Made by a program: the position numbers and the translations under genes | The notes under the pieces: model-generated | Database searches by the model: none | Seen by the model: only the letters and a program-made list of their open reading frames with translations | Told to the model about the DNA's origin: nothing | NCBI GenBank assembly: GCA_965223005.1 | Contig: CBDCVK010000002.1 | Coordinates: 416,001-480,000, forward strand | Reading direction: 5' to 3' | Source: Terriglobia bacterium | GTDB taxonomy: Bacteria > Acidobacteriota > Terriglobia > JAJPHL01 > JAPKYU01 | Length of the DNA stretch: 64,000 nucleotides | In this document: positions 2,067 to 64,000 of the stretch, one piece after another | How the letters are laid out: the number at the start of each line of letters is the position of its first letter | How positions within the stretch are numbered: position 1 is the stretch's first letter

Positions 2067-3356
2067 GTGCAGAGAAGCTACCACATCCTAGGCCGGAGCG
2101 ATAGCCGAAGCTCCCGCAAACTGGCTGCCTACCTGGCTCGCCACGGGCAGTTTCTGCTGCCCTGGGTGGAGTTGATCGAACAATCGCGGTTAGCCGTCGA
2201 CGAGCTGATCGACGTGGTGGGTAGGGCGGCGATTGAAGCGGTGCTGGAGTTGTCGGCCGCGCAGGTGGCCGGTCCACGCCGTCAGGGCCGGCGGCGCCGT
2301 GGGGTAGGCTGGTATGGGCGCCAGCGGGGACGGGTGCGCCTGAAGGAGAGAAAGCTGGCCGTGCACAGGCCACGGCTCCGGCGGCCAGGCCGGGGAGCGG
2401 GGAAAGAAGTTCCCCTCCCGGCCTACGAAGCCATGCAGGAGGGCGAGGGTCTGGGGGCCCGGATGTTGGATATCTTGCTGCGGGGCGTCTCGACCCGGCA
2501 GTACCAGCGGGTGTTGCCGGAGATGGCGGACACCGTGGGTGTGTCGCGCTCCACGGTCAGCCGGGAAACGATGGAGGCTGCCGCAGCCGAGTTAGAACGT
2601 CTGTTGAACCGCCGCTTCGAGGAAGTAGAGTTGCTGATCCTCTACATCGACGGGATGGTGTTTGGCGACCATCACGTGATTGCGGCTGTGGGCGTGGATG
2701 CGGAAGGGCACAAGCACGTGCTGGGGATTCAGGAGGGGGCTACGGAGAACGCCGCGGCCGTCCAGGACTTGCTGGAAGGTTTAGTGCGGCGAGGGGTGCA
2801 GCCGGCCCAGAAACGGCTGTTTGTGATCGACGGCTCGAAGGCCTTGCGGGCGGCGATCCGCGCCGTGTTCGGGGCCGAGCAGCCGGTGCAGCGCTGCCGC
2901 GCCCACAAGTTGCGCAACGTCCTGGACCGGTTGCCGGAGCCAGAGCGGGACCAGGTGCGGGCGGCGATGCGGGCCGCCTGGCGGTTGGATCCGAAGACCG
3001 GCAGGGCCAAGCTGGAGAAGTTGGCCCAATGGTTGGAGCGAGATTGTCCGGCCGCGGCGGCCAGCTTGCGGGAGGGTCTGGAGGAATGTTTCACCATCAA
3101 CCGGCTGGGGCTTCCGGCTTCGCTGCATCGCTGTCTGGCCACCACCAATCTCATCGAGAGTCCGCAGGCGGGAGTGAGGTTGCGAACTCGCCGGGTGTGC
3201 CGCTGGCGGGATGCGGCCATGGTCCAGCGCTGGGTCGCCTCCAGCTTCCTGGCCACGGAGAAAAACTTCCGCCGCCTGATGGGGTACCAGGACCTGTGGA
3301 TGTTGAAAGCGATCCTCGAAGGATCAAAGTCGGCCACTCGACGGGAGGTGGCGTAG
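2067..3356 (+). CDS. IS256 (Mutator-like) DDE transposase
   Basis: GVSTR, YIDG, IDGSKAL, QRCRAH (CxxH) and TTNLIES motifs; GTG start at 2067 after a purine-rich RBS. Confidence 0.95.
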   Translation: MQRSYHILGRSDSRSSRKLAAYLARHGQFLLPWVELIEQSRLAVDELIDVVGRAAIEAVLELSAAQVAGPRRQGRRRRGVGWYGRQRGRVRLKERKLAVHRPRLRRPGRGAGKEVPLPAYEAMQEGEGLGARMLDILLRGVSTRQYQRVLPEMADTVGVSRSTVSRETMEAAAAELERLLNRRFEEVELLILYIDGMVFGDHHVIAAVGVDAEGHKHVLGIQEGATENAAAVQDLLEGLVRRGVQPAQKRLFVIDGSKALRAAIRAVFGAEQPVQRCRAHKLRNVLDRLPEPERDQVRAAMRAAWRLDPKTGRAKLEKLAQWLERDCPAAAASLREGLEECFTINRLGLPASLHRCLATTNLIESPQAGVRLRTRRVCRWRDAAMVQRWVASSFLATEKNFRRLMGYQDLWMLKAILEGSKSATRREVA

Positions 3357-19878: not shown

Positions 19879-20487
19879 TTAGTCGAGCTCGTTTAGGAAG
19901 TGGCCCAGTTTGTCTCGTTTGGTTTTCAGGTAGTTGCGGCGTAATCCATTGGCCTCGGCCTCGCAGGCGACGCGCTCCCGCACCCGGATGTCGGCCTCCT
20001 CCAGCGCCCGGACCTTGTGGGGGTTGTTGGAAAGCAGGCGGACGGCGCCCACTCCGAGGTGGCGCAAGATGGCGGCCGGCAAGGCGTAGTTGCGCAGGTC
20101 AGCGGCGAAGCCCAGGCGCCGGTTGGCCTCCACCGTGTCCACGCCATGGTCCTGCAGCTCATAGGCTTGCAGCTTGTTCATCAGGCCAATTCCGCGCCCT
20201 TCCTTGTGCTCGTAAATGAGCAGGCCGCAACCCTCGGCCGAGATGTTCTGGAGGGACAATTCGAGCTGGTCCCGGCAGTCGCAACGCAGTGAACCAAATA
20301 CGTCCCCGGTGAGGCATTGGGAATGAATCCGCACCAGGGGTGCTTCGGCCGACGCCGGCTCGCCCATGACCAATGCCACTGCGGCCTCGTCTCCTTGCCG
20401 AAACCCGAAAATTCGGAAACGCCCGTAGCGGGTGGGGAAATCCGCCTCTCCGACCTTTTGGACTGTCGCCGTGGGCTGTGCCTCCAT
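19879..20487 (-). CDS. ribA: GTP cyclohydrolase II
   Basis: VRIHSQCLTGDVFGSLRCDC, EGRGIGL, DLRNY, LLSNNPHK, YLKTKRDKLGH. Confidence 0.96.
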   Translation of the reverse strand: MEAQPTATVQKVGEADFPTRYGRFRIFGFRQGDEAAVALVMGEPASAEAPLVRIHSQCLTGDVFGSLRCDCRDQLELSLQNISAEGCGLLIYEHKEGRGIGLMNKLQAYELQDHGVDTVEANRRLGFAADLRNYALPAAILRHLGVGAVRLLSNNPHKVRALEEADIRVRERVACEAEANGLRRNYLKTKRDKLGHFLNELD

Positions 20488-29758: not shown

Positions 29759-30520
29759 CTAGCTCGTGGAACCTCGCTGGGCTTTTTGCTGTCCCATGCG
29801 TTGATGTGCGATCTCTAGTAGGTTCCCAATTTGCGCCCCCTTCGAGTACGTTACAAGTCCCCAATGAAAGGCCAGCTTGTAACCCTTGATGGGATGCTCG
29901 CTGTTCCAGCGATCCGCCATCTCATACAAACGTTCGACGACCATTTGGGCCTTCTGCTCGCGAACCCCAAGCATCAGCACCACGAATTCATCCTTGCCGT
30001 AGCGGATGAGCGTGTCCGAACCGCGAAAGTTTTTCTTGAGGAGTTCGGCAAACCCCTCAAGGACCCGGTCACCTGTAGAGTGCCCCAGAGATCGAAAGCC
30101 ATTCAATTTGAACATCACGAGCGTTAGGCTTATTTCCGGTATGCGCTCGACCCAGCGGATTTCCTTGGAGACTCGCTGGTCCAGATACTGTTGATTCAAG
30201 AGACCTGTCAATGGATCTACCAGCGAAAGGTCTTTAGCTCCCACTTGGCCTGCCAGCTGCTTTCGGGCGTCGAAGATGAGGTTCCGCTTCTTGCGAGCAT
30301 TCAGGCTGAAATGAATGCTCCCAACGATGAAGACGAGGCAGAGTAGAGGCAAGTACCACTCTTTCCATCGGTAGAGGCCCAAGCTCGCCCTCCAATGGGG
30401 TAGCGCTGCAATGAGCAACGCCACCCCCGTGGCCAAGACAAACGCGAGAGCGGTGCCTTGGAGTCGAAGCTCCTGGTTTTCCAAAGTCCTCATTTGGTGA
30501 CGGAGTTCCTCAGGTTTCAT
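29759..30520 (-). CDS. Membrane-anchored degenerate GGDEF-domain protein
   Basis: Two TM helices, DPLTGLLN, GHSTGDRVL, RYGKDEF; FKLNGF replaces the DxDxFK motif. Confidence 0.85.
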   Translation of the reverse strand: MKPEELRHQMRTLENQELRLQGTALAFVLATGVALLIAALPHWRASLGLYRWKEWYLPLLCLVFIVGSIHFSLNARKKRNLIFDARKQLAGQVGAKDLSLVDPLTGLLNQQYLDQRVSKEIRWVERIPEISLTLVMFKLNGFRSLGHSTGDRVLEGFAELLKKNFRGSDTLIRYGKDEFVVLMLGVREQKAQMVVERLYEMADRWNSEHPIKGYKLAFHWGLVTYSKGAQIGNLLEIAHQRMGQQKAQRGSTS

Positions 30521-39559: not shown

Positions 39560-39597
39560 CCAATGCCATTTCTCATTGCCAATGACATTTCTCATTG
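39560..39597. repeat. Two tandem 19-bp palindromic repeats
   Basis: CCAATGCCATTTCTCATTG CCAATGACATTTCTCATTG. Confidence 0.85.
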
Positions 39598-39632
39598 AAT
39601 GAAACGTGCCAGCGGCTTACCCTTCTGGCAGT

Positions 39633-39699
39633 CGGTATCGTTTTGGAAAGGCGTATCGGTCCGAAGGGCGTATCGGTCCGAAAGGAATATCGGGCGGCC
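39633..39699 (+). repeat. 17-bp tandem repeats (2 near-perfect, 2 degenerate) before the SBBP gene
   Basis: GCGTATCGGTCCGAAGG GCGTATCGGTCCGAAAG plus flanking TATCG units. Confidence 0.8.
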
Positions 39700-42690
39700 A
39701 TGCGAAAATCCTCCTCGTATCAACGTATCGCACGCGGAGCTGAAGACTGCCCAATTGCCCTGCAAACGCTTGCTTTGTTCGTGTTGTCCGCATTGGCCCT
39801 GGGGCTATTACGATTTGGATCCGATCCTGCTCTCCGGCGAGAAACGGAGTGGGGCGCGATTGCCGCTGTCTCCTCAACGAAGCCCGGACAGGAGCAATCT
39901 ACGGCCTTCAATCGGCAGCCGGCAATTGAGGTGGCCTACGGCAACCTCCCGTTGAGTTTTGAACCAAACGAGGGCCAGACCAACAGCCAGGTGGAGTTCC
40001 TGTCCCGCGGCCGCGGCTACACACTGTTCTTGACGGCAACCGAGGCAGTGTTGTCTTTACGCAAGCACGCCGCACCGAAGGCCAATAGGGGTGAGGACAG
40101 CGAGGACACGAGTGGCGCCGTGCTGCGCATGAAATTGCTCGGGGCCAACCCCTCGCCACGGGTGACTGGGCTGGAGGAGCTACCGGGCAAGGGTCACTAC
40201 TTCATCGGCAATGACCCGGCCAAGTGGCGCACGAACGTTCCGACCTACGCCAAGGTGAAGTACGAGGACGTCTATCCCGGCGTGGATTTGGTTTACTACG
40301 GCAACCAGGGCCAACTGGAGTACGACCTGATTGTTGCTCCCGGGTCCGATCCTGGGGCCATCTGTCTCGCCTTCGGGGGCGAAGACGAACTGGAAATAGA
40401 TGTTCAAGGCGATCTGGTGCTTCATGCCGGCGGAAGTCAAATCCGTCTGCAGAAACCGCTGGTCTATCAGGAGACGGGTGAAATCCGGCAGGAGACGGAT
40501 GGGATCCGGCAAGAAATCTCCGCGGCCTATGTGCTCAACGCCAGGCGCCAGGTCGGCTTCGAGGTGGGCACGTATGATGCCGATAAGCCGCTCATCATTG
40601 ATCCGGTGCTGAGCTACTCGACCTATCTCGGCGGCACTGCCATTGACCGGGGCTTCGGCATCGCCGTGGATGGCGCCGGCAACGCTTATGTGACGGGCGG
40701 GAGCAGTTCGATCAACTTTCCCGTATTAAATCCCTTCCAGGCTCTTTTCCCTGGGGGCGCGGTAGACGCTTTTGTGACGAAGTTGAATGCCACAGGCTCG
40801 GCGCTCGTCTACTCCACCTACCTGGGCGGCGAAGGCGATGAACAAGGCTTCGACATCAAGGTGGACGACTCCGGCAACGCCTATGTGACAGGACAGACCG
40901 ATTCGACCGACTTCCCCACGGCCGGTCCCATCCAGGTGGTGAACCGCGGTTTAAGCGACGCCTTCGTGACGAAATTGAATGCCGCAGGCAATGAGCTGGT
41001 TTACTCCACCTACCTGGGTGGTAGTTCCTCCGATTTTGGCTTCGGCATCTCCTTAGACGACTCCGGCAACGCCTACGTGACAGGACAGACCGATTCGACC
41101 GACTTCCCCACGGCCCTTCCCATCCAGTCTGCGAACGGCGCTTTAGGCGATGCCTTTGTGGCGAAATTGAATGCCGCAGGCAACGTTCTCCGGTACTCCA
41201 CCTACCTGGGCGGCAATGGCAACGATTGTGGTTTCAGAATCGCCGTAGACGCCTCCGGCAACGCCTACGTGCACGGTGACACGACTTCGACAAACTTCCC
41301 CACGGCGAATCCATTCCAGTCCACAAGGCGCGGGGCCTCGGATGCCTTCGTAACGAAACTGAACGAGTCCGCCAATGCCCTCGTTTACTCCACCTACCTG
41401 GGGGGCAATGGCAACGAGCTTGGCTTCGGCATTGCCGTAGACGCCTCCGGCAACGCCTACGTCACGGGCGTTACGGATTCGAGTGATTTCCCCACGGCCA
41501 GTCCCATTCAGCCCGCTTTCGACGGCGGCCTAGCCGACGCGTTCGTTACGAAATTGAATGCCGCAGGCGGCGCTCTCCTCTATTCCACTTACCTGGGAGG
41601 CGTCGCGACCGACGCTGGCTTCGCCATCGCCCTAGACGCGTCCGGCAACGCCCATGTGACAGGACGGACCGATTCGGTCGACTTTCCCACAGTGAGTCCT
41701 GCCCAGGCAGCTTTCGGCGGTGGCCTCGAAGACGCCTTTGTGACAAAGTTGAATGTCACTGGCTCGGCAATGGTCTACTCCACCTACCTGGGCGGCGATG
41801 GCGATGACCAAGGCGGCGACATTGCCGTGGACGCCTCTGGAAACGCCTACGTCACGGGGAATACCGGTTCAACTGACTTCCCTACGGCGAACCCCTTTCA
41901 GCCCAGTAACGCCGGAAGCGAAAACGCTTTCATTGCCAAGCTTACGGAACTGCCCTCGGTGCCTCCAACCCTGCCGGCCAACTCCGTGGTCAACGGCGCC
42001 AGCTTCCGGGCGGCCACGGACCCCAATGGAGCCATCGCCCCGGGCGCAATTGTGGCCATCTTCGGAACGGACCTGGCGAGCGATATCCTGCTGGCGGGTG
42101 AAGTACCACTTCCCACGACGCTGGGGGATACCAGCGTGACTTTTGACGATGTAGCTGCCCCGCTGTTTTTCGTCTCCGGCACGCAGATCAATGCGCAGGT
42201 TCCCTTTGAGCTATCGCCGGGGGCAGGGACGGTCACGGTGCAGGTGAAGCGAGGCAGTGAGGCAAGCGCCGCGCAGCTGATCGCGCTCGCGGCCGTATCG
42301 CCGGGGATTTTTACGCTCAACCAGCAGGGCACCGGCCCTGGCGCGATCCTTCACGCGGAAAACTTCCAGCCGGTCAACGAAAGCGCCCCGGCCCGGCCGG
42401 GCGAGTTCCTGCTGGTCTTTTGCACGGGGCTTGGTCCGGTGCAGCCCGAAGTCCAGTCAGGCGAGGTTGCCCCGAATATTCCACCGCTGGCGGAGACGAT
42501 CAGTACACCGCTGGTGAACATTGCCGGCATAGCCGCCGCCGTGACCTTCTCCGGCCTTGCTCCGGGATTCGTAGGACTCTACCAGATGAACGTGCAGGTA
42601 CCTGCGGGCGTCCCTTCGGGTACGCAATCGGTTGAAGTCATCATCAACAACGTCCCGGGCAGCGCCGAGGTCACCATCGCTGTCGAGTAG
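39700..42690 (+). CDS. Cell-surface SBBP beta-propeller repeat protein with Solibacter-type (TIGR03437-like) C-terminal domain
   Basis: LPLSFEPNEGQ N-domain, seven YSTYLGG..IAVD.SGNAYVTG.T.S.DFP repeats, VVNGASF..QINAQVP..PGFVGLYQMNVQVP. Confidence 0.92.
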   Translation: MRKSSSYQRIARGAEDCPIALQTLALFVLSALALGLLRFGSDPALRRETEWGAIAAVSSTKPGQEQSTAFNRQPAIEVAYGNLPLSFEPNEGQTNSQVEFLSRGRGYTLFLTATEAVLSLRKHAAPKANRGEDSEDTSGAVLRMKLLGANPSPRVTGLEELPGKGHYFIGNDPAKWRTNVPTYAKVKYEDVYPGVDLVYYGNQGQLEYDLIVAPGSDPGAICLAFGGEDELEIDVQGDLVLHAGGSQIRLQKPLVYQETGEIRQETDGIRQEISAAYVLNARRQVGFEVGTYDADKPLIIDPVLSYSTYLGGTAIDRGFGIAVDGAGNAYVTGGSSSINFPVLNPFQALFPGGAVDAFVTKLNATGSALVYSTYLGGEGDEQGFDIKVDDSGNAYVTGQTDSTDFPTAGPIQVVNRGLSDAFVTKLNAAGNELVYSTYLGGSSSDFGFGISLDDSGNAYVTGQTDSTDFPTALPIQSANGALGDAFVAKLNAAGNVLRYSTYLGGNGNDCGFRIAVDASGNAYVHGDTTSTNFPTANPFQSTRRGASDAFVTKLNESANALVYSTYLGGNGNELGFGIAVDASGNAYVTGVTDSSDFPTASPIQPAFDGGLADAFVTKLNAAGGALLYSTYLGGVATDAGFAIALDASGNAHVTGRTDSVDFPTVSPAQAAFGGGLEDAFVTKLNVTGSAMVYSTYLGGDGDDQGGDIAVDASGNAYVTGNTGSTDFPTANPFQPSNAGSENAFIAKLTELPSVPPTLPANSVVNGASFRAATDPNGAIAPGAIVAIFGTDLASDILLAGEVPLPTTLGDTSVTFDDVAAPLFFVSGTQINAQVPFELSPGAGTVTVQVKRGSEASAAQLIALAAVSPGIFTLNQQGTGPGAILHAENFQPVNESAPARPGEFLLVFCTGLGPVQPEVQSGEVAPNIPPLAETISTPLVNIAGIAAAVTFSGLAPGFVGLYQMNVQVPAGVPSGTQSVEVIINNVPGSAEVTIAVE

Positions 42691-54283: not shown

Positions 54284-55234
54284 TCAGGAGGTAGCGGTGC
54301 CGGCGGGCCTGAACACAACCCAGCGGTTACGCCCCGTGCGCTTGGCAGTGTAGAGAGCCTGGTCGGCGGAATCCAGCAGGTGCTCGAAGGGGCCCTCCCG
54401 AATCACTTCGGTGCCCGCGAGGCCAATACTGATAGTCACTTTGGTCGTGGTATTCCCCTGGGTGAACGGCTCGCGTTCGATCGACGTGCGGAGCCGCTCG
54501 GCCAGCATTTGTGCGGTGGCCAGGTCGGTATTGGGTGCCACCAGGATGAATTCCTCGCCCCCGTATCGGGCCAGCAGGTCCGAGCGGCGGGTGGCCTCTT
54601 TGAGGCGCTCGGCAATGGTTTTCAGCACGTGGTCCCCGAACATGTGGCCGTAGGTGTCATTAATGGATTTGAAATGATCCACGTCCAGCATGAAGCAGAT
54701 CAGCGCCTGCCCGTACCGCCGTGCCTCCTCGAAGAAGTGCTGCACGACCGTGAAGAAGTAGTGCTGGTTATAGAGGCCGGTAATCTGATCGGTGACGGCG
54801 AGCTGCTCCAGCCGTGAGTAAGCCTCAGCCAGCTCGCTCTGCTTGTTTTCCAGCTCGAGGTTCAGCTGGGTGATTTCGCCTAGCAGTTCCAGGTCAGCCG
54901 TCTTGTTGCGACCCACGGCCCCCACCAGGTGCAAGTCTTCCAGGTCCATGCGGCACAGCGAGTAGTGCACCGGGTGAATTCTGCCGTCGGGGGCTTTGTG
55001 AACTACCTCGAGCTGGCGGGCGCCGGAATCCGCAGCCGCCAGAGCCTCCTGGAGTCGCGGCCCGGACTCCTCGTTCACCAGGGAGACAAAATCCAACCCT
55101 TTCGGCTCGGCGCCTTCCAGAAAAGCGTTTCGAAAGGCCCGGTTGGCAAACACAACGCGGCCCTGCAGGTCCAGGGTAATCAGGTAGTCCGTGGCCGCGT
55201 TGACAAAAGCCACGGTCAAAGATTCGGGGTCCAT
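54284..55234 (-). CDS. PAS-coiled coil-GGDEF diguanylate cyclase
   Basis: PAS, TDQITGLYN, DVDHFKSINDTYGH, RRSD I-site, RYGGEEF. Confidence 0.94.
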   Translation of the reverse strand: MDPESLTVAFVNAATDYLITLDLQGRVVFANRAFRNAFLEGAEPKGLDFVSLVNEESGPRLQEALAAADSGARQLEVVHKAPDGRIHPVHYSLCRMDLEDLHLVGAVGRNKTADLELLGEITQLNLELENKQSELAEAYSRLEQLAVTDQITGLYNQHYFFTVVQHFFEEARRYGQALICFMLDVDHFKSINDTYGHMFGDHVLKTIAERLKEATRRSDLLARYGGEEFILVAPNTDLATAQMLAERLRTSIEREPFTQGNTTTKVTISIGLAGTEVIREGPFEHLLDSADQALYTAKRTGRNRWVVFRPAGTATS

Positions 55235-55484
55235 CGCGCAGGCCCTCCCGCAGCGCCCGCTATACAGCGCCAGTTATACAGCGACCGCGGCTGGGCTGGC
55301 AAGTGCCCTCTTCCAAAATTTCAACGGACCAGGCCGGCTTCCTGCGTCCCTTTGCAATGGACGCGGAGGGCGAACGAGACGCGGCAAGAGTCGCCTCCCT
55401 GGTTGTGAAGAAGGCCTTGCGCGCTGGGAGGCGAAAAATGCATGCGCCAGCTGGTCATTCCGCAATATAATTGGGTATTCACCG

Positions 55485-56660
55485 ATGCCGGAACCCCCCA
55501 ATTTTTCCACCATTGGCGAGGCGGTCGAAGAGGTGCAGGCCGGACGGATGGTGGTGGTGGTGGACGATGAAGATCGCGAGAACGAAGGCGATCTGACTCT
55601 GGCCGCTGAAAAAGTCACTCCAGCAACCATCAACTTCATGGCCCGCTATGGCCGGGGCCTGGTCTGCTTAACGTTGACCGAAGAGCGGCTGGATTACTTA
55701 CGGATTCCACGGATGGTGGAGAAGAACACGTCACCGCACGGGACCGCTTTCTGCGAAACGATTGACGCCCGCCACGGAATCAGCACCGGCATTTCCGCGC
55801 AGGACCGAGCTACAACCGTCCTGGCAGCCATCTCCCCGACCACGCAGCCGGCCGATCTGGTTCGGCCCGGGCACGTGTTCCCGCTGCGGGCGCGGCGCGG
55901 CGGTGTGCTGGTGCGCGCCGGCCAAACTGAGGCCAGCGTAGACCTGGCTCGTCTGGCCGGTCTGATTCCCTCTGGGGTCATCTGCGAGGTGATGAATGAC
56001 GACGGCACCATGGCCCGCGTGCCCCATCTGGTCGAATTTTGCCGGAAGCACGGGTTGAAGATGATCACGGTGGCTGACCTGATCCGCTATCGCCTCCGCA
56101 ACGAGCGCTCAGTGCGTCGTGTCGGCGAAGCGGCCCTCGTCAACCGATATGGGGAATTCCGGGTGATCGCCTATCAATCGGAACTGGACGGGGAAGTGCA
56201 CGTGGCCCTGGTGAAGGGGGATGTGGGGCCTCAGGAAGAGGTGTTAGTGCGTGTGCACTCGCGCTGCCTGGCGGGCGACCTGTTCGGCTCCTCGGCCTGC
56301 GACTGCGGCGGGCTGGTAGAGGCAGCTTTGGCCCGCATCGCCGAGGAGGGCAGCGGCGTGTTGCTCTACCTGCACAATACCCGCCCCGGCTTCCACGTTG
56401 AGCCCCTGGAAGACGGCCGCGGGTTGCTGGTCTTCCACGGGCGCGAATTCCGCCAGCCCAGCGAACTGGCCCACGATCGCCGCATCCAGTACGAGTCCGG
56501 CATCGGGGCGCAAATACTCTCAGACCTGAGCCTTCGCAATATCCGCTTGCTCACCAACCGCCCACGCAAGGTAGCAGCCCTGGAAGGCTACGGCATCCGG
56601 ATCGTCGAACAGGTTCCGCTGGCGATGGAAAAACCCGCCAGCCGCCGGAAATCGCTTTAG
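55485..56660 (+). CDS. ribB: DHBP synthase fused to a degenerate GTP cyclohydrolase II domain (RibBX-like)
   Basis: [34 protein letters not shown]; C-domain lacks EGRGIG and DxRxY. Confidence 0.9.
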
Positions 56661-56912: not shown

Positions 56913-59846
56913 ATGAAACAAGTTGTGAAGGGACTTGTGGCTGCCAGCTTCCTCCTGTTCTTCGGGCAGGCAGCTGATGTAGCGCAGCAGGTGCAAAGGG
57001 CTCGGCGGCTGGGCCAGGCCTACTACGAGGAGGGAAACTACCCGGCGGCCACTGAGCAGTTCCGGAGCGTGCTGCGCGCCCAACCGGGGGCCGGTGCGTT
57101 TGCAGATCACTTCAACCTGGGGCTGGCGCTGATTGGAGTCCAGGACGAAGAAGGGGCGCTGGCGGCTCTGGAGACGGCGCGGCAGATGAATCCCGGCTCG
57201 CCGGCGCCCTTGTATGGGCTGGCCATTCTCTACAAACACCGGGGACGTTTCCAGAAAGCGCTGGAATACTTCGAGCGTGCAGAAAAGGCCGGCGCCTCCG
57301 ACATTGCCACTCTGTTCAACACCGGTGTGGTCCTGATGTCGCAGGGTCGTCTGGAGGAAGCTCTGGGCTACTTCCAGCGCGTGCTGGATCGTGGCATTGA
57401 TTTTGGGCCGGGCTGGTACCTTTCAGCTGAATACCGCACGTCGCGCCTGCTGCGGCGGCTGGGTCGAGCCGAAGAAGCCACGCGCGTACTCCGCCGTTGG
57501 CAGGAGCACCGGAAGCAGCGGGGCGAGCCAGTCCAGACGGCTGCCATGCTGGAGCTAGGGCCGCTGGCCATTCCCCAGATCCCGGCCGAGGCTGCGCCGG
57601 CGCGCCGGAAGGTCGCTGCACCGGCTTTCGCCGCTCACGCTCCCCATCCGGCGTCCGATTTCCCGGTGGTCGAAACCTACACCGTTGTCTTCGACTACGA
57701 TGTGGACGGTGACCTGGATCGCCTCCTGATTCCGGCAGAATGCGGCCGCCCCCGCCTGGAGAGGAATAACGGCGCCGACGCGGCCGGCCAAGATACGTTT
57801 TCCGATATCACCAGCGCCGCTCAGGTTGTGGTTCCGGGCGACAAGCAAGTGTGTGGCGCGGCAGTTGCGGATTTCGACAACGATGACGACACCGACATCG
57901 CTGTCGCAGGCCCGGACGGCGCCTGGCTATTCTCCAACCTGCGGGGAGGCAAGTTTGGCGTATCGGCGCCGTTTGCCCAGGCCAAGGGAACAGCGGTGGC
58001 CACCGCAGACCTGGACGCGGACGGTGCCTTTGACTTGGTCTTTGGTTCCTCCGAAGGTGTTTCGGTGTGGTGGAATCGGGGCAGCCTGCTCGCGGAGATC
58101 GAGGGTGCAAAGGGCCCGTTCGCGCTGGGCGATCTGAATGGAGATGGGCTTCAGGATCTTGCGACGGTCGAGGTCTCGGAGAAAGGCAAAGCCCGTCTCC
58201 GCTTCTGGCTGAATTCAGCGGGACGGCGCTTCCAGCAGCGTGCCGGTCCCCCGCTGCCCGACGCAGTCACTGCCTTGAAAACACTGTACCTGCGCGAGGG
58301 AAAGCTCTCCCTGCTGGGGCGCGCCGAAAAGGGCCAGGTGTGGAAGCTGGACCGCGTGTCCCCGCAAACCCACTGGCTGCACCTCAACCTGGAGGGCGTG
58401 CGCAGTAACAAGACGGGAGTGGGGGCCGTGGTGGAGGTGAAGGCCGGCAATTTCTACGCGCGCGCCGTAGTCGGCGCCGAGCCGCTGACGATCGAGACTG
58501 GCGAGTTGAAGCGCGTGGACGTGGTGCGCGTCACCTGGCCCAACGGCATCGTACAGAACGTGATCGAAACCCCCACCAATCGCGCCGTGCGCGTGGCCGA
58601 GCAGGACCGGCTGGCCAGCTCCTGCCCGTTTCTTTACCTCTGGGACGGCAACGAATTCCGCTATTTCGGCGAGGTCTTGAGCATCACCCCACTGGGCGAG
58701 CCGGACGGGCGCGGCGGCTTCATTCTGCCCGGCTCGCACGAGAATGTCTTCTTGCCGGGGCAGCTGATGCGGGCGCGGGATGGCCGCTATGTCTTCCAAT
58801 TTACCGAAGAGCTGCGCGAAGCCGTCTACCTTGATGGCGTACGATTGGTGGCGCTGGACTATCCTACAGGCCTGCGGGCCTTTGTGGACGAGGCCTATCG
58901 CGGCGCCCCGTCGGACATCGCTCCGGTCGTGCTGGCGGATGTGAAGCCGGTTCCCTCCCGGCGGGAGCCAGCAGAACCCAGCCCAACAGAACCTAGCAAG
59001 GAAGTGTTACCCGGCTTGGTCGAGCCGTACGCCGAATACTTGGAGTTGCCGCCCGGCGCCGACTTCCTGGTGCTGCGCGGCTGGACCTACTGGATGGATT
59101 CCAACGTCGCCACGGCCGCCAGCCAAAATCCGCTGCGCGTGGCCGTGCCCCCGCGGCTGGAGGCGCGCCGGCCCGACGGCACCTGGCAAACCGTGGTGGC
59201 GGATCTGGGCTTGCCTTCCGGCCGAAGCCGCTTCGTGCTGGCTGACTTGCGTGACCGGCTGGACTTTGCCTGGCCAGAGAGCCGGGAAGCCACGCCACTC
59301 CCGCTGCGCATCGTCACCAACTTACGCGTTTCCTGGGATGAAATCCTGGCGGGCAAGCTGGCCGGAAGCCCGCGCCGGATCGAGCGCCGGGCGCAGGCCG
59401 CGGACTTGCATTACCGGGGCTTCTCGTTTCCGACGATTTCGCCCACGCGAAGCGCGGCGGATGATTACGACTACTCGCGGCTGATGGCCGGGGCACCCTG
59501 GAGTGCGATTTCCGGGCGCTACACCCGCTACGGGAATGTCCTGCCTCTGGTAGGGGCCGAAGATGACCGGCTTGTCGTCCTGGCGGCAGGCGACGAGTTG
59601 ACTCTGGAATTTTCTGCTGCCTTTCCCCCTCTGCCCGACGGCTGGCAGCGCGACTTCGTTCTGGAGCTTTCCGGCTGGGTTAAGGCAGGGGAATTCAACA
59701 CGGCAAGTTCGGGGCGTGTCGAACCGCTGCCATTTCGGGGTATGAAACAGTATCCCTACAACGCGGTCTCCACGGCCGGCTGGCAGCGGCGCTGGCTCAC
59801 GCGGCGTCCCTTGCCGCACCTCCTACCTCTGGCTCCCGCCTACTAG
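56913..59846 (+). CDS. Secreted TPR + FG-GAP/VCBS repeat + ASPIC/UnbV (CRTAC1-like) protein
   Basis: Signal peptide, TPRs, DYDVDGDLD/DFDNDDDTD/DLNGDGLQD Ca-binding repeats, SNKTGVGAVVEV..VTWPNG, SSCPFLYLWDG. Confidence 0.88.
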   Translation: MKQVVKGLVAASFLLFFGQAADVAQQVQRARRLGQAYYEEGNYPAATEQFRSVLRAQPGAGAFADHFNLGLALIGVQDEEGALAALETARQMNPGSPAPLYGLAILYKHRGRFQKALEYFERAEKAGASDIATLFNTGVVLMSQGRLEEALGYFQRVLDRGIDFGPGWYLSAEYRTSRLLRRLGRAEEATRVLRRWQEHRKQRGEPVQTAAMLELGPLAIPQIPAEAAPARRKVAAPAFAAHAPHPASDFPVVETYTVVFDYDVDGDLDRLLIPAECGRPRLERNNGADAAGQDTFSDITSAAQVVVPGDKQVCGAAVADFDNDDDTDIAVAGPDGAWLFSNLRGGKFGVSAPFAQAKGTAVATADLDADGAFDLVFGSSEGVSVWWNRGSLLAEIEGAKGPFALGDLNGDGLQDLATVEVSEKGKARLRFWLNSAGRRFQQRAGPPLPDAVTALKTLYLREGKLSLLGRAEKGQVWKLDRVSPQTHWLHLNLEGVRSNKTGVGAVVEVKAGNFYARAVVGAEPLTIETGELKRVDVVRVTWPNGIVQNVIETPTNRAVRVAEQDRLASSCPFLYLWDGNEFRYFGEVLSITPLGEPDGRGGFILPGSHENVFLPGQLMRARDGRYVFQFTEELREAVYLDGVRLVALDYPTGLRAFVDEAYRGAPSDIAPVVLADVKPVPSRREPAEPSPTEPSKEVLPGLVEPYAEYLELPPGADFLVLRGWTYWMDSNVATAASQNPLRVAVPPRLEARRPDGTWQTVVADLGLPSGRSRFVLADLRDRLDFAWPESREATPLPLRIVTNLRVSWDEILAGKLAGSPRRIERRAQAADLHYRGFSFPTISPTRSAADDYDYSRLMAGAPWSAISGRYTRYGNVLPLVGAEDDRLVVLAAGDELTLEFSAAFPPLPDGWQRDFVLELSGWVKAGEFNTASSGRVEPLPFRGMKQYPYNAVSTAGWQRRWLTRRPLPHLLPLAPAY

Positions 59847-59930
59847 GCTGAGAGATGGCCTGAGCGATGGAATGAGAGATGGAATGATTGGTCCAAAATC
59901 GAAAGAGACATTTCCCTGCAGCTGACGCTT

Positions 59931-60255
59931 TCACTTCCAGGCAGCGGCCCTGGCCTGGAGGAACTCGTCCAGCATCTGCCGAACTTCCGTCTTTACCCCC
60001 ATGAACTCCACTCCCATGCCGACTTCCGGATCTACATAACGCACCACGCACTCGATTTCCGGTATCTCATGGACCATAGCGATGAAGACTTGCTCTGCGA
60101 ACCGGGCGGGTTTGTTTGTGAGCACATAGCAGCCCCCAACACTCATGTTGCTTACCGTACCGTTGCCGGTCTTGCTCTCGCCGCGCCATTGCGCCACGAG
60201 CGGCGGCCGGAGGCTAAGCCCGCGGATATCTGCGCAGTTCCTTAGCGTCAGGCAC
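59931..60255 (-). pseudogene. Stand-alone PilZ protein with one frameshift (or sequencing error)
   Basis: The frame from GTG 60255 gives ELRRYPR then a stop; another frame gives NMSVGG..VVRY..GMGVEF; removing one base in CCC 60219-60221 gives a 107-aa PilZ. Confidence 0.8.
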
Positions 60256-60367
60256 GGGAACCCCATTCTATCGGGTTTCTCTCGGCGAAAGCTATGGCTG
60301 TGCGCGGGCTGACTGTCACAAGCGTTTGGCTTGCGGGCCTGCGGGTGCCGGGGGCATCATAGCCGCC

Positions 60368-60781
60368 ATGAAATTCCACACCGAATACCTGACGTTCCAC
60401 ACGCAACAACGCCGGGAATACATCAACATCACCGCCCAGGTACAAAAGGCACTGGGGGAAAGCGGCATCCGGGAAGGGATCGCGCTGGTTTCCGCCATGC
60501 ACATTACTGCCGCCGTGTACGTCAACGACGCCGAGGAGGGCCTGATCCAGGACATTGACGAATGGCTGGACCGGCTGGCGCCCTACCGGCGTGATTACCG
60601 CCATCACCGCACCGGAGAGGACAACGGCGACGCGCACCTGAAGAACCTGCTCATCCACCACCAGGTGCTGCTGCCCGTCACCGCGGGCAAGCTGGACCTG
60701 GGGCCCTGGCAGCAGGTCTACTACGCCGAGTTCGATGGCCAGCGGCGCAAGCGGCTGATCATCAAAATCCTGGGGGAATAG
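60368..60781 (+). CDS. yjbQ: YjbQ-family secondary thiamine-phosphate synthase-like protein
   Basis: [32 protein letters not shown]. Confidence 0.93.
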
Positions 60782-60844
60782 ACGCGGGTCTCGCGGGGCC
60801 GGGGCTGCCCGATACGCTACACTCACGCCTGCTCTGGCGAACGC

Positions 60845-61390
60845 TTAGCTAATCTCTCGGATCCGCGATTGGAGCTGCTTCAAATCAATTGGTTTGAACA
60901 GGTACGGGCAGCCGGATTCCTGCAGGAAGCGGAGCGTTTTCTCGCTCTGGTCGCCCGTCAGGAAGAGGACCTTGTCCGTGTAGTCGGGCAGATAGACTGC
61001 CAAGAAGCGGTACAGGCTGCGCCCGTCGAAACCGGGCATGAGAATGTCAGAGACAATGGCGTCGAAGTCCGCGGCCTGCAGCTTCTGGACGGCTTGGTCG
61101 GCGGAAATGGCAGTTTCCACCACGTAGTCGTCTGAGTGCAGCATCATCTGGAGCACCTGCAGGGTGTGCCGATCGTCGTCAATCACCAACAGGCGGCGAG
61201 GCGCGGCCTCGCGTCTCGGTTGAGGCTCCCGGCGGCTCGGCAGCGTTAACTTCCAGGACGTCTCTTGCCCGCACTGTTCGCACGGCACCTGCACTGTGCC
61301 TTCGGCCAGCAGCAACGCAAAATCGGTTTCATTCAGGGGGAGGACTTGTTCGGTTGCGCACTGTTCACAAGAGAGCATACAGGCTGGCAT
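60845..61390 (-). CDS. Response regulator: N-terminal Zn ribbon plus C-terminal receiver domain
   Basis: CEQC..CEQC..W, then LLVIDDD, SDILMPGFDG, FLTG, FKPID. Confidence 0.88.
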   Translation of the reverse strand: MPACMLSCEQCATEQVLPLNETDFALLLAEGTVQVPCEQCGQETSWKLTLPSRREPQPRREAAPRRLLVIDDDRHTLQVLQMMLHSDDYVVETAISADQAVQKLQAADFDAIVSDILMPGFDGRSLYRFLAVYLPDYTDKVLFLTGDQSEKTLRFLQESGCPYLFKPIDLKQLQSRIREIS

Positions 61391-61418
61391 TGCAGTGAAC
61401 CCTCGTGGGTGCTGGAGA

Positions 61419-63491
61419 TCAGGACGGTTTCTGCCAGGCGTAGACGTCGCGGTTGTCCACCTGCCTGGGTACCTGCACAAAATCTTCCCGGCTCGCCAGG
61501 CTCCGGTACACATCTCCGGACACCCACAGGCTGTCCACTGCCGCGTACTTTTGCAGGTGCCCCGCTACGTCAATGGTCTCATCGCTGATATCTTCCAGGG
61601 GCTTGGTATCGGGCACCATCACCTCACCCGCGTTCAGGCCGCAGCGGACATGGAACTTGATTCGGAGTTGGTGGACGTCGCGGTTGAACCAGTCCAGTTC
61701 CACCAAGAGCTTGCGGGCCATCGTCGAGGCATCCTCTACTGATGGAAAGCAGCTCATTACCCCGTCAGGGGTCCAGGCCACCTTGTAGGCGCGGTATTCG
61801 TGGAACAGGTGCTCCAGGAATTTCTTGTACTCGGTGAAAGCGTGTTCCACCACAATCTTGTCTTCGCCCAGCTTCATCTTCGTGGAGCCGACGACGTCAA
61901 TGGAAAGAAAGGCCAGTTCCTTTTTCACCTCGCCCAGGATGCGCTTGGCAGCGGCGTAGTCGCGCAGCAGCGACATCCGGGAGGCATCGCGCCCCACTCC
62001 GGCGCCGGCCTGGCCTGGCCGGCCGCCACTGATGTGGGCGCCACCAGTAGCAACGGCCGGGCGGGTCAGCAGCGGCTTGCGGAGCCACGACTCCAGCCCT
62101 TCCACGCGCCCAATTGCCACCTGCGCCACGATGTAAGTGAGCAGTGCCAGTCCGATCAGCAGGAAGTTGAAGTTCTGGTAGGTCAGGTCTACGTTGATCA
62201 CGCCGTAGGCGAAGGCCAACAGCGGGTCAATGGCTTCGTGCAGCCAGCGAACTGGGGTTAGACCGCGGACGCGCTCGGGGCGGAACAGGGGCAGCGTGAA
62301 CAAGGCTACGCAGCCCATGGCGTAGACGATAGCGACCAAACCCAGGCCTTTGCGAAGTACGGACAGTCCGGTGCAGGCCCCCAGGCGCCAGGCGCGCTCT
62401 GCAGGGGAAACCGCGGCGTGCCTGGCAACCGAGGGGGTAAAGGCACCTGAATCGCGCGCAGGCGGCGCCGGCTGGGGAGCCACCGCCGGAGCAGGCACGG
62501 CCACCGTGGCGACCCCGCCGGGCGGGGTCACGGCCGGTGTTGCCGCCTGGGGAGTCGGCGGCACCAGTTCGCTCAATTTCTCTGCAGGCGGCGCTGTCAC
62601 CTGGAGATCCCGGCCCGGCTGCATCACCACCGTGCCGCTCCAATCCCGACCGCTGTCAATTTGCTGCTTCATGGCCCGCAAGTCGACTAGCAGGCGCACC
62701 GCATTCTGGTAGCGCTGCTCCCGGTTCTTCTCCAAACACTTGGCGATCACGCCTCCCAGCGTGGGCGAGACGTCCGGATTGACGTCGGTCGCGGAGGGAC
62801 ATGGCTGGTTCAAGATCTTGGCCAGCACGACGTTGGGGGAACCGCCGCTAAAGGGCAGCTTGCCGGTGGCCATCTCAAAGAGCACCACTCCGGTCGAGTA
62901 GATATCGGTGCGGGCATCCAGATCGGCTCCCAGCGCCTGTTCTGGTGACATGTGACTGATGGTGCCCATCACCATGCCGGCGCTGGTGCGGAAGGCATCG
63001 TGGGCCTGCGCTCCCGCCTTCTCGACCATCTTGGCCAGGCCGAAGTCCAAGATCTTCACCTGGCCCCGGTCCGTCACCATGATGTTTTCTGACTTGATGT
63101 CGCGGTGGATAATGGCTTTTTCGTCGGCCAAGCTCAGCGCGTCGACGAGCTGGATGGCAATTTCCAGCAACTGGCGGGGGGGCAGCGGCCCTTGTTTGAG
63201 CATGTCTTTCAGGGTCTTGCCTTCGACGAACTCCATCACCAGATAACGCAAGTCGTCCTTGACTCCGAACTCGTAGATGGTGGTGATGTTCGCGTGCTGC
63301 AGCTTGGAGGCTGTCTTGGCTTCGCGCAGGAAGCGGCCCAAGGACTCCTCGTCGCGCTGGGCCTGGGGTGGCAGGATCTTGATGGCCACCGGGCGGTCCA
63401 GGTTCGTGTCATCGGCCCGGTAGACGACACCCATGCCGCCTTCTCCCAGTTTGCCCACGATTTTGAAGTGCGAGAGGGTCTCCCCGATCAT
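61419..63491 (-). CDS. Hanks-type Ser/Thr kinase-Pro/Ala linker-YggT-like TM hairpin-class III nucleotide cyclase-like fusion
   Basis: GEGGMG, VAIK, HRDIKSEN, DFG, SPE; two TM segments; SIDVVGST, TPDGVMSCF, VRCGLNAGEV, TIDVAGHLQ. Confidence 0.88.
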   Translation of the reverse strand: MIGETLSHFKIVGKLGEGGMGVVYRADDTNLDRPVAIKILPPQAQRDEESLGRFLREAKTASKLQHANITTIYEFGVKDDLRYLVMEFVEGKTLKDMLKQGPLPPRQLLEIAIQLVDALSLADEKAIIHRDIKSENIMVTDRGQVKILDFGLAKMVEKAGAQAHDAFRTSAGMVMGTISHMSPEQALGADLDARTDIYSTGVVLFEMATGKLPFSGGSPNVVLAKILNQPCPSATDVNPDVSPTLGGVIAKCLEKNREQRYQNAVRLLVDLRAMKQQIDSGRDWSGTVVMQPGRDLQVTAPPAEKLSELVPPTPQAATPAVTPPGGVATVAVPAPAVAPQPAPPARDSGAFTPSVARHAAVSPAERAWRLGACTGLSVLRKGLGLVAIVYAMGCVALFTLPLFRPERVRGLTPVRWLHEAIDPLLAFAYGVINVDLTYQNFNFLLIGLALLTYIVAQVAIGRVEGLESWLRKPLLTRPAVATGGAHISGGRPGQAGAGVGRDASRMSLLRDYAAAKRILGEVKKELAFLSIDVVGSTKMKLGEDKIVVEHAFTEYKKFLEHLFHEYRAYKVAWTPDGVMSCFPSVEDASTMARKLLVELDWFNRDVHQLRIKFHVRCGLNAGEVMVPDTKPLEDISDETIDVAGHLQKYAAVDSLWVSGDVYRSLASREDFVQVPRQVDNRDVYAWQKPS

Positions 63492-63705
63492 CCGCGCACA
63501 CCTTGCCCCGGCTTCTGTCTGCTCATCATACACGGAAGCCGTGAATCTAGAAGAGCTCTTTCTGGGTACCCCGGTTGCCTAGACTCGGCACCCGTGCGTT
63601 GGAACGGCGAGCGAGAGGATCTTCGTTTGCATCCCTGCTGGGCCGCCCGCGCCGGCCGGACGTTGGACAGGCGCCCTGCGCGCCAAGTCCCCGTTTGCTG
63701 TCCGG

Positions 63706-64000
63706 TTAGGCCACCGCTGGCGCAGGCTGCCGGGTCGGGGAGGCGGGCGGCCTCGGCTCCTGCGGGCTCAGAGCCAGGTCGATGACTTCGTCAATTGTCT
63801 TAACGTAGTGGACGGTAAGGCCTTCCAGTTGAGTGGGCTTGAGGTCTTCTTCGACGTTGATTTGGTTTTCGCGAGGCAACACAACCTCGGTAATCCCGGC
63901 TCGCTTGGCGGCCAGCACCTTCTCCTTGATACCACCCACTGGCAGGACCAGGCCGCTGAGGGTGATCTCGCCGGTCATCGCCACGTTGGGACGGACGCGT
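63706..64000 (-). CDS. lon: Lon protease, C-terminal protease domain (5' part outside the window)
   Basis: [29 protein letters not shown]. Confidence 0.95.

Follow-up and report, generated by a model that had tools for sequence, protein, structure and literature searches.

A membrane-anchored Ser/Thr kinase of a Terriglobia bacterium carries a variant class III cyclase-homology domain found in a widespread, uncharacterised family

What can a class III cyclase domain do once the residues by which such enzymes are recognised have been replaced, and the replacements have become fixed? The question is raised by a minus-strand gene in a 64,000-nucleotide stretch of the genome of a Terriglobia bacterium (assembly GCA_965223005.1, contig CBDCVK010000002.1, positions 416,001 to 480,000 of the forward strand; hereafter the window). 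Class III cyclases are the main makers of cyclic AMP (cAMP) and cyclic GMP (cGMP), and six catalytic residues are treated as diagnostic of them. We show here that the product of this gene is a membrane-anchored signalling protein from an uncharacterised and widespread family, in which the Terriglobia have put an active Hanks-type Ser/Thr kinase ahead of a core consisting of a membrane hairpin and a cyclase-homology domain (CHD). Throughout this large bacterial family the metal side of the cyclase pocket is kept, and Asp, His and Asp are fixed where Asn, Arg and Lys are expected. Below we set out the evidence for this pattern, describe the family and its kinase fusions, and weigh what the domain may do.

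A class III fold with a remodelled pocket

The open reading frame (ORF) occupies 61419..63533 on the minus strand, and the ORF list and translation give the ATG at 63491 as the likeliest start of a protein of 690 amino acids. We chose this start because it agrees with the consensus start of the homologues, MIG..G.Y.I..KLGEGGMG, and because the closest relative (P0002) is also 690 residues long. Judged by ORF calling, Pfam, hydropathy and AlphaFold2, the four-part anatomy of the original prediction and the coordinates that it gave are correct (Table 1). All domains of the protein are intact, and we consider its anatomy and family assignment very likely to be right.

AlphaFold2 was run on residues 370-690 (the fragment) with 112 relatives and returned a model with a mean predicted local distance difference test score (pLDDT) of 92.1, in which the sole stretch below 50 falls in the Gly/Ala-rich linker. 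A Foldseek comparison of this C-terminal part, of the kind that the original prediction had proposed, bears out the cyclase fold that was first read from the sequence. Foldseek gave 185 matches in the PDB at E ≤ 0.001, and every one of the top matches listed is a class III cyclase, among them CyaC (1wc1, E 9e-10), RhGC, Ma1120 and Rv1900c (1ybu, TMt 0.82); a profile of the family matches 3mr7 from S. pomeroyi at E 3.4e-8, with a residue alignment. The domain shares with CyaC of Spirulina, Rv1900c of M. tuberculosis, Ma1120 of M. avium and 3mr7 the fold itself, the metal aspartates, the R.G.(H/N).G strand and the helix in which the N.A.R positions lie, and differs from them in the fixed substitutions Asp641, His645, Asp679, Ala572, Pro575 and Asp637. 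It is entered by a conserved helix in which R505 is kept in 89% and L519 in 95% of relatives. In the ESM Atlas, the fragment stands beside clusters of 'hypothetical protein' that have no common Pfam family (scores 0.98 and 0.97).

Pocket residues were assigned by alignment to 3mr7, Ma1120 and mammalian AC5 C2, with conservation counted over 256 non-redundant relatives; the canonical roles follow an extract of PMC4886424 and are otherwise general knowledge of these enzymes. Both metal aspartates are present, D532 (in SIDVVGST) in 253 of the 256 relatives and D576 (in TPDG) in 251, and the glycine expected before the second of them is P575 (95%). The position of the substrate lysine is taken by A572 (A, T or S in the family), with K570 two residues earlier (89%). 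At the purine-specifying aspartate position our protein has D634, and the family is variable (E in 163, K in 24, Q in 21, D in 12 and R in 8 relatives); the conserved glycine of D(I/V)(W/F)G is D637 (93%). DVAGH replaces N.A.R, which puts D641 at the transition-state asparagine position (253/256) and H645 at the transition-state arginine position (248/256). The phosphate-binding lysine position, by alignment to the lysine of 3mr7, is D679 (244/256). Other near-invariant residues of the domain are K540 (252/256), R616 (253/256), E633 (91%), Q647 and K648. These results uphold the non-canonical features first pointed out, namely both metal aspartates with proline for glycine and DVAGH for NxAxR. 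The accompanying remark that no substrate-selecting Lys or Glu is evident holds for the canonical lysine position, which is Ala572, and overlooks the nearby K570, together with E633 and the Asp that the window protein has at position 634.

The combination of D532, D576, D641 and H645 is found complete in 246 of the 256 relatives. The ratio of non-synonymous to synonymous substitution rates (dN/dS) was computed by the Nei-Gojobori method with our own script for the window gene against four orthologues, the synonymous rate (dS) being saturated in the distant pairs. For the CHD it is 0.24 against the close relative L006 (dS 0.22) and 0.18-0.24 against L001, L004 and L010. Since this residue combination is so widely kept and the dN/dS of the CHD is about 0.2, the domain is not decaying. 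Values for the kinase are 0.14-0.26, and the linker and hairpin evolve faster (0.36-0.63), the linker being the fastest part of the protein (0.43-0.63).

The family core, its membrane hairpin and the kinase fusions

The family core is a unit of about 330 residues, a YggT-like hairpin followed by the CHD, which occurs in many phyla and has the kinase as an optional addition. Of 8000 proteins scored in a word-indexed search with residues 370-690, 213 matched at E ≤ 1e-3; the majority of those listed have 660-710 residues and a Pkinase domain, some are named as from Acidobacteria, Terriglobales or Koribacter, and some carry the source name 'serine/threonine protein kinase/class 3 adenylate cyclase'. 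An exhaustive search of cluster representatives returned 932 at E ≤ 1e-3, 507 at E ≤ 1e-10 and 135 at E ≤ 1e-30, and most of the representatives listed are 300-420 residues long with the domain at the C-terminus. By genome scan, at least 475 genome stretches were confirmed from 585 pattern matches, and all analyses of loci reported here use the best 80 of these (at least 475) genomic matches. The 80 loci come from Acidobacteriota, Elusimicrobiota, Bacteroidota, Gemmatimonadota, Nitrospirota, Syntrophaceae, Chlorobiaceae, Ignavibacteriales, Verrucomicrobia, Planctomycetia, Chlamydiales, Bradyrhizobium, Methylocystis, Polaromonas and Legionella steigerwaltii. The ORF lacks a kinase in 56 of them, has an N-terminal one in 14 and a C-terminal one in 5, and is cut by a contig end in another 5. 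Among 266 database proteins the kinase is N-terminal in 100, C-terminal in 23 and lacking in 143, some of the last being fragments.

In the window protein the kinase matches Pfam Pkinase (PF00069) at E 2.5e-51, with 175 bits against a cut-off of 31.7, and its motifs are complete: GEGGMG (16), VAIK (35), HRDIKSEN (129), DFG (149) and SPE (182). The intact Hanks kinase of the original prediction is thereby confirmed, and the Pro/Ala/Thr linker that it described behind the kinase is visible in the translation. Across the family the kinase motifs are retained in 105-109 of 115 N-terminal and in 28 of 28 C-terminal fusions. The kinase is fused at the N-terminus in the Terriglobia and at the C-terminus in other lineages, and in one case it is an adjacent gene, a kinase-TPR gene coming next after the hairpin-CHD gene in L067 (Planctomycetia). 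In a midpoint-rooted FastTree tree of 256 CHDs, which is built from this single domain and in which some 'no kinase' tips are fragments, the N-terminal fusions lie within one clade of 75 tips (63 with a kinase and 12 without; support 0.896) that contains 0 of the 21 C-terminal-kinase tips. From this separation of N- and C-terminal fusions it follows that the kinase joined the core at least twice independently. Two of the 12 kinase-less tips of the clade, L014 and L016, are truly short genes that lie within long contigs. Within the Terriglobia the family is vertically conserved. Rare additions elsewhere are a C-terminal MshEN domain (P0212), which we take to be a receptor or binding domain for cyclic di-GMP (c-di-GMP), and a weak AAA-type N-terminus (P0254).

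The membrane part is modelled by AlphaFold2 as three helices with a pLDDT of about 92, the middle one, which contains WLHEAIDPLLAF, lying between two hydrophobic segments. Basic residues (K+R) exceed acidic ones (D+E) both before helix 1 (2.2 against 0.67) and after helix 2 (7.65 against 5.6). The even number of membrane helices together with this charge bias would place both soluble domains in the cytoplasm; the cytoplasmic placing of the two catalytic domains that was first proposed fits two helices with positively biased flanks. To our knowledge, the YggT proteins described so far have no soluble domain. Like the YggT/YlmG/Ycf19 family (PF02325), the hairpin has two membrane helices around a short helix that opens with a (D/E)PLL-type turn, and this loop helix is the predicted counterpart of the YggT stretch 'EPLL...P..GG.D.SP'. 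Unlike that family, the window hairpin is without the P..GG.D.SP motif: ahead of helix 2 the short relatives have PT.I.GG.D, and the window protein has VDLTYQNFN there.

The original prediction had noted a resemblance to YggT, and this stands for the family and less well for the window copy itself. The Pfam model YGGT gave no match for the window hairpin (residues 365-505) at E ≤ 0.1. It matches 2 of 42 representatives (P0142 with 28.1 bits against a cut-off of 27, and P0130 with 24 bits), and, at E ≤ 0.01, 9 of the 113 relatives in alignment A2, the best with 1.6e-8. Of 76 hairpin segments, 5 match at E ≤ 0.1 and a single one passes the cut-off; L042 reaches 37.6 bits. Profile-profile alignment with hhalign, on alignments that are our own, connects the window clade to YggT through intermediates. 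The window clade aligns with short relatives that have no BLAST link to it at Prob 95.9 (E 5e-9, 112 columns), and those short relatives align with E. coli-type YggT at Prob 87.7 (E 3.4e-6, 83 columns); the C-terminal-kinase group reaches YggT at Prob 27 (E 6.7e-4, 43 columns). Aligned directly, the window clade and YggT give Prob 1.2 (E 0.046, 46 columns), no better than reversed-sequence controls (Prob ≤ 5, E 0.0078-0.64), in the same register as first proposed. The YggT alignment is narrow (Neff 1.4), because a search with E. coli YggT gave just enterobacterial sequences (78-100% identity) among the 120 listed.

Modelled alone, the hairpin has a pLDDT of 91.8, and Foldseek returned 0 matches for it in the PDB at E ≤ 0.001. 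Among matches of low root-mean-square deviation (rmsd), the best are to chains of 101 residues from the Chlamydomonas TOC-TIC entries 7vcf and 7xzi, with E-values that are not significant (7vcf_H: TMq 0.57, rmsd 3.1, E 6.8; 7xzi_D: TMq 0.45, rmsd 4.0, E 2.8). Entry 7vcf is reported to contain the two-helix YGGT-family protein YlmG (extract of PMC13399175), and neither 7vcf_H nor 7xzi_D could be tied to YlmG by sequence. The hhalign intermediates and the Pfam matches in relatives support a YggT-related hairpin for the family. For the window copy, which has no Pfam match, motif or direct hhalign signal of its own, the transitive link through profiles and relatives points weakly to a diverged member.

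Genomic surroundings

The genes of the window are those of an ordinary chromosomal region, among them NrdR, the complex I operon, aconitase-type genes, an extracytoplasmic function (ECF) sigma factor and others like them. The gene next downstream of the kinase-cyclase gene encodes a Zn-ribbon-like segment followed by a receiver whose acidic pair, Asp, Thr and Lys are all canonical. Orthologues of it lie 13-44 nucleotides downstream in L004, L005 and L010 and occur also in L006, and no orthologue is present in L001-L003 or in the more distant loci among the 80; conservation of this receiver gene is confined to the closest subclade. The original prediction had the kinase-cyclase gene encoded with this receiver and with lon. 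The first partner is borne out in the four loci named and not family-wide. As a conserved partner lon can be rejected, the Lon C-terminus being found near the gene in 0 of the 80 related loci. The locus L006, from a Terriglobia metagenome-assembled genome, has counterparts of the receiver (94%), of the UPF0047 gene (97%) and, in synteny, of the PilZ gene (88%), which marks the window as DNA of a Terriglobia-type acidobacterium. Between the receiver and PilZ genes, a minus-strand ORF of 192 amino acids with no Pfam match overlaps the plus-strand UPF0047 gene and is most likely its shadow.

Table 1. Coordinates of the kinase-cyclase gene, its parts and other genes of the window
Feature	Coordinates	Strand	Residues or details	Basis
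Whole gene: kinase, linker, membrane hairpin, variant CHD	61419..63491	-	690 amino acids; stop codon 61419-61421	
Hanks-type Ser/Thr kinase domain	62706..63464	-	10-262	Pfam Pkinase, motifs
Pro/Ala/Thr-rich linker	62352..62624	-	~290-380	translation
Membrane helix 1	62283..62351	-	381-403	Kyte-Doolittle mean hydropathy 1.86; AlphaFold2 helix, pLDDT >90
Loop and helix with WLHEAIDPLLAF	62163..62282	-		AlphaFold2 helix at fragment residues 43-62; hhalign register against YggT
WLHEAIDPLLAF	62211-62246	-	416-427	within the helix between the two membrane helices
Membrane helix 2	62094..62162	-	444-466	Kyte-Doolittle mean hydropathy 1.72; AlphaFold2 helix
Gly/Ala-rich flexible linker	61995..62093	-	467-499	pLDDT <50 at fragment residues 113-127
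Conserved helix into CHD	61929..61994	-	500-521	AlphaFold2 helix, fragment residues 131-152; conservation
Variant class III CHD	61422..61928	-	522-690	Foldseek, 3mr7 and AC5 C2 alignments, conservation, dN/dS
DVAGH, replacing N.A.R	61557-61571	-	641-645	alignments
Zn-ribbon receiver gene	60845..61390	-	181 amino acids; 28 nucleotides past the stop; N-terminal CxxC...CxxC Zn-ribbon-like segment and receiver	Pfam Response_reg E 8.5e-18
3' end of lon	63706..64000	-	214 nucleotides upstream	Pfam Lon_C E 1.8e-25
ORF of 192 amino acids	60248-60826	-	between receiver and PilZ genes	no Pfam match
UPF0047 (YjbQ-like) gene	60326-60781	+	97% identical in L006	E 9.2e-39
Small PilZ gene	59931-60266	-		
TPR / FG-GAP / ASPIC-type protein	56913-59846	+	977 amino acids	
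Fused RibBA	55191-56660	+	GTP cyclohydrolase II	
PAS-GGDEF gene	54284-55234	-		
DUF7948 protein with five SBBP beta-propeller repeats	39595-42687	+	1031 amino acids	
GGDEF gene	29762-30520	-		
Stand-alone RibA	19882-20487	-	GTP cyclohydrolase II	
Mutator-family transposase	2037-3353	+	adjoins M4 peptidase gene	Transposase_mut, E 2.3e-39

Clustering of 1903 neighbour ORFs and a Pfam scan of 128 immediate neighbours (128 of 137 ORFs, the 9 left out being long and mostly of TPR type) found no partner conserved family-wide. Neighbour synteny is instead lineage-specific by Pfam, with Hist_deacetyl upstream in 9 loci and CysS in 8 (Bacteroidota, Chlorobi, Ignavibacteria), an NAD-epimerase in 5 Gemmatimonadota loci, and UDP-GlcNAc 2-epimerase, GT2 and LMWPc in 3 each. 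A gene of the histone-deacetylase family precedes a stand-alone hairpin-cyclase gene on the same strand in 12 loci by clustering (median gap 51 nucleotides) and in 9 by Pfam (L024, L044, L047, L048, L070, L071, L073, L078 and L079, from Bacteroidota, Chlorobi and Ignavibacteria). In five further loci (L034, L065, L068, L072 and L075) the family gene lies between a low-molecular-weight phosphatase gene (LMWPc), directly upstream, and a DUF4760 gene, directly downstream; a C-terminal kinase is carried by four of the five and is missing from L068, which suggests a kinase-phosphatase pairing in this clade. The sugar-nucleotide and polysaccharide neighbours, namely the NAD-dependent epimerase (L037, L039, L043, L050 and L080), the UDP-GlcNAc 2-epimerase (L054, L060 and L074) and the family-2 glycosyltransferases (GT2; L014, L046 and L063), occur in several phyla and may hint at an envelope link. 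No riboswitch or other RNA element turned up in an Rfam search of 59500-64000 (0 matches at E ≤ 1), and a promoter and terminator scan stayed at chance level.

Several other genes of the window may be recorded here. Three are of c-di-GMP type, a PAS-GGDEF gene, a GGDEF gene and the small PilZ gene. Near the kinase-cyclase gene lies that of a TPR / FG-GAP / ASPIC-type protein; eight Terriglobales loci (including L009:1091-4042) encode TPR proteins of about 960-985 residues some 2.8 kilobases upstream of the kinase-cyclase gene, which does not imply orthology to the 977-residue protein of the window. The two GTP cyclohydrolase II genes are a stand-alone RibA and a fused RibBA, the latter called with about 100 residues ahead of its DHBP synthase domain. 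A Mutator-family transposase gene adjoins an M4 peptidase gene, in which the Pfam match to the catalytic domain begins at model position 66 of 145, at residue 2. Finally, one gene encodes a DUF7948 protein with SBBP beta-propeller repeats.

What the variant domain may do

We tentatively favour the view that the CHD is a still-active enzyme with altered nucleotide chemistry, and give it somewhat less than an even chance. Since most relatives, at about 330 residues, consist of no more than the hairpin and the CHD, no domain but the CHD is a candidate for the output. The catalytic reading is preferred because these stand-alone forms have no other output, because the metal aspartates are near-invariant, and because the MshEN fusion reads as an input leading to a CHD output. 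By analogy with class III cyclases the protein would dimerise by way of its CHD and probably also of its hairpin. Of the pocket, the side that holds two metals and the triphosphate is retained (D532, D576, the GST loop, K540 and R616), and the opposite side is rebuilt, with Ala572 (and K570 near it), Asp641, His645 and Asp679 at the positions of Lys, Asn, Arg and Lys, respectively. Given one side kept and the other rebuilt, we propose that the CHD may bind a metal-nucleotide and convert it by a changed mechanism. Rv1900c, which has His in place of the Asn, is still an active cyclase (extract of PMC4886424). As products, cAMP and cGMP would be less probable here than with a cyclase of the ordinary sort. 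A membrane or envelope cue would reach the CHD dimer by way of the hairpin, and the kinase, as part of the same dimer, might be switched by the same movement or might phosphorylate the flexible linkers or the CHD and so tune the CHD. In the closest subclade the co-transcribed Zn-ribbon receiver would be the likely downstream partner.

Several findings weigh against this interpretation. Recognition by Pfam Guanylate_cyc (PF00211) is borderline: the whole protein matches over residues 526-673 with 20.3 bits against a cut-off of 21.9, the C-terminal fragment alone reaches 22.3 bits, and just 58 of 113 relatives match at E ≤ 0.01. Arg is found at position 645 in 0 of the 256 relatives and Asn at position 641 in just 1. 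The basic residues for the base, the transition state and the phosphate are Ala, His and Asp, D637 replaces a conserved Gly, and the rebuilt side of the pocket is as a result strongly acidic, which argues against canonical nucleoside triphosphate binding. A cyclic-nucleotide-binding protein is the immediate neighbour in just 1 of the 128 ORFs scanned (at L040).

Because three basic catalytic residues have been lost and cyclic-nucleotide receptors are not nearby, it is nearly as likely that the CHD is a non-catalytic pseudo-cyclase, a reading that we regard as possible though doubtful. In its acidic, His-containing pocket at the dimer interface it would bind a small cytoplasmic ligand, a metal or some cation, or else it would do no more than enforce dimerisation, and in either case it would switch the fused kinase; the stand-alone forms would regulate whatever the YggT-like membrane module does. 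The exchange of the canonical Lys, Arg and Lys for Ala572, His645 and Asp679 is what such a domain might be expected to show, with more negative charge from D637 and D641, and bacterial Hanks kinases are usually fused to sensor or interaction domains. A kinase at either end of the core, or in a neighbouring gene, fits a dimerisation-driven switch, and the single cyclic-nucleotide receptor among 128 neighbours points the same way. YggT-family proteins, moreover, work in membranes with partners, an example being YlmG bound to Tic20 (extract of PMC13399175). Set against this, the metal aspartates, the GST loop, K540 and R616 are kept in 91-99% of relatives, and a pure ligand sensor has no obvious need of them. 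The stand-alone forms of about 330 residues would also be left without a recognisable output domain, and the MshEN fusion P0212 would hold two sensors and no output.

That the CHD is an ordinary cyclase, making cAMP or cGMP while the kinase merely regulates it, is implied by automatic annotation, as in the source names quoted above, and seems to us distinctly unlikely. The class III fold and the metal aspartates are there, the window protein has Asp at the adenine-specifying position 634 and K570 two residues off the canonical lysine, Rv1900c functions without the Asn, and the relative L040 adjoins a gene for a cyclic-nucleotide-binding protein. However, the transition-state Arg is missing in 256 and the Asn in 255 of the 256 relatives, position 634 is variable across the family, the phosphate lysine position is Asp679 and the Guanylate_cyc score is borderline. 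We reject as very improbable a Pycsar-like anti-phage module, in which a pyrimidine cyclase would signal to an effector: variant class III cyclases of unusual specificity do serve in Pycsar, and two stand-alone relatives weakly match PycC (E 3.5e-3 and 5e-3), but the Pycsar analogy drawn in the original prediction finds no support in the window protein, for which PADLOC gives generic kinase models only and no PycC match, and the gene lies in an ordinary chromosomal region away from any defence-island context, with no effector gene conserved alongside, with housekeeping or lineage-specific neighbours, and with vertical conservation within the Terriglobia.

Comparison with known systems helps to place the protein. 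A CHD that has both aspartates and has lost the Asn/Arg side resembles the C1 half of mammalian cyclases, and no second, C2-like cyclase partner is encoded in the window. Animal receptor guanylyl cyclases consist of a kinase-homology domain, a helix and a class III cyclase domain, and thus also combine a kinase-type and a class III domain in one membrane protein, with a helix leading into the cyclase domain. Theirs are a pseudokinase, a canonical cyclase and an extracellular sensor, whereas the window protein has an intact kinase, an altered cyclase domain, a hairpin between the two and no extracellular domain. The TOMM kinase/cyclase fusion (TIGR03903) likewise joins a bacterial Hanks kinase to a cyclase-type domain, but only the kinase part of our protein (residues 34-275) matches this model of 1267 residues, with 139.7 bits against a cut-off of 705.75. 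The DUF2652 proteins are a divergent class III subgroup, itself long unrecognised, that conserves the metal aspartates and has altered specificity and transition-state residues; as described in an extract of PMC4886424, they are cytosolic, have no membrane segments and keep the Arg. They are a different family, and no scan gave a Pfam DUF2652 match. LadC of Legionella pneumophila can be set aside as a characterised relative, since its inactive variant is N430A/R434A (extract of PMC12370740) and LadC accordingly has the canonical Asn and Arg.

We found no study in the literature of a YggT-cyclase protein or of this kinase fusion. As to the 'new system' of the original prediction, the protein is one architecture of a large family that has already been annotated automatically. 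There are precedents for class III cyclases anchored in the membrane, for kinase-cyclase fusions and for divergent families of cyclase-like proteins. What is new is a large subfamily, as yet uncharacterised, in which the Asp/His/Asp substitution pattern is fixed and the anchor is of the YggT type, and for its cyclase part the automatic labels 'protein kinase' and 'class 3 adenylate cyclase' are probably misleading.

The family ties to a signalling domain a hairpin of the YggT type, a near-universal membrane family of unclear function, and the repeated fusion of Hanks kinases links Ser/Thr phosphorylation to the hairpin-CHD module. In its fullest form, our proposal is that the nucleotide product of the family is neither cAMP nor cGMP, or that its reaction is some other metal-dependent nucleotidyl transfer, controlled by a membrane or envelope cue that the YggT-like hairpin reads, and that in the Terriglobia this activity is wired directly to Ser/Thr phosphorylation and to the Zn-ribbon receiver; taken as a whole this is speculative and rather unlikely. 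If true, it would add a new branch to the chemistry of class III cyclases, and a YggT-type membrane domain would for the first time have a signalling role.

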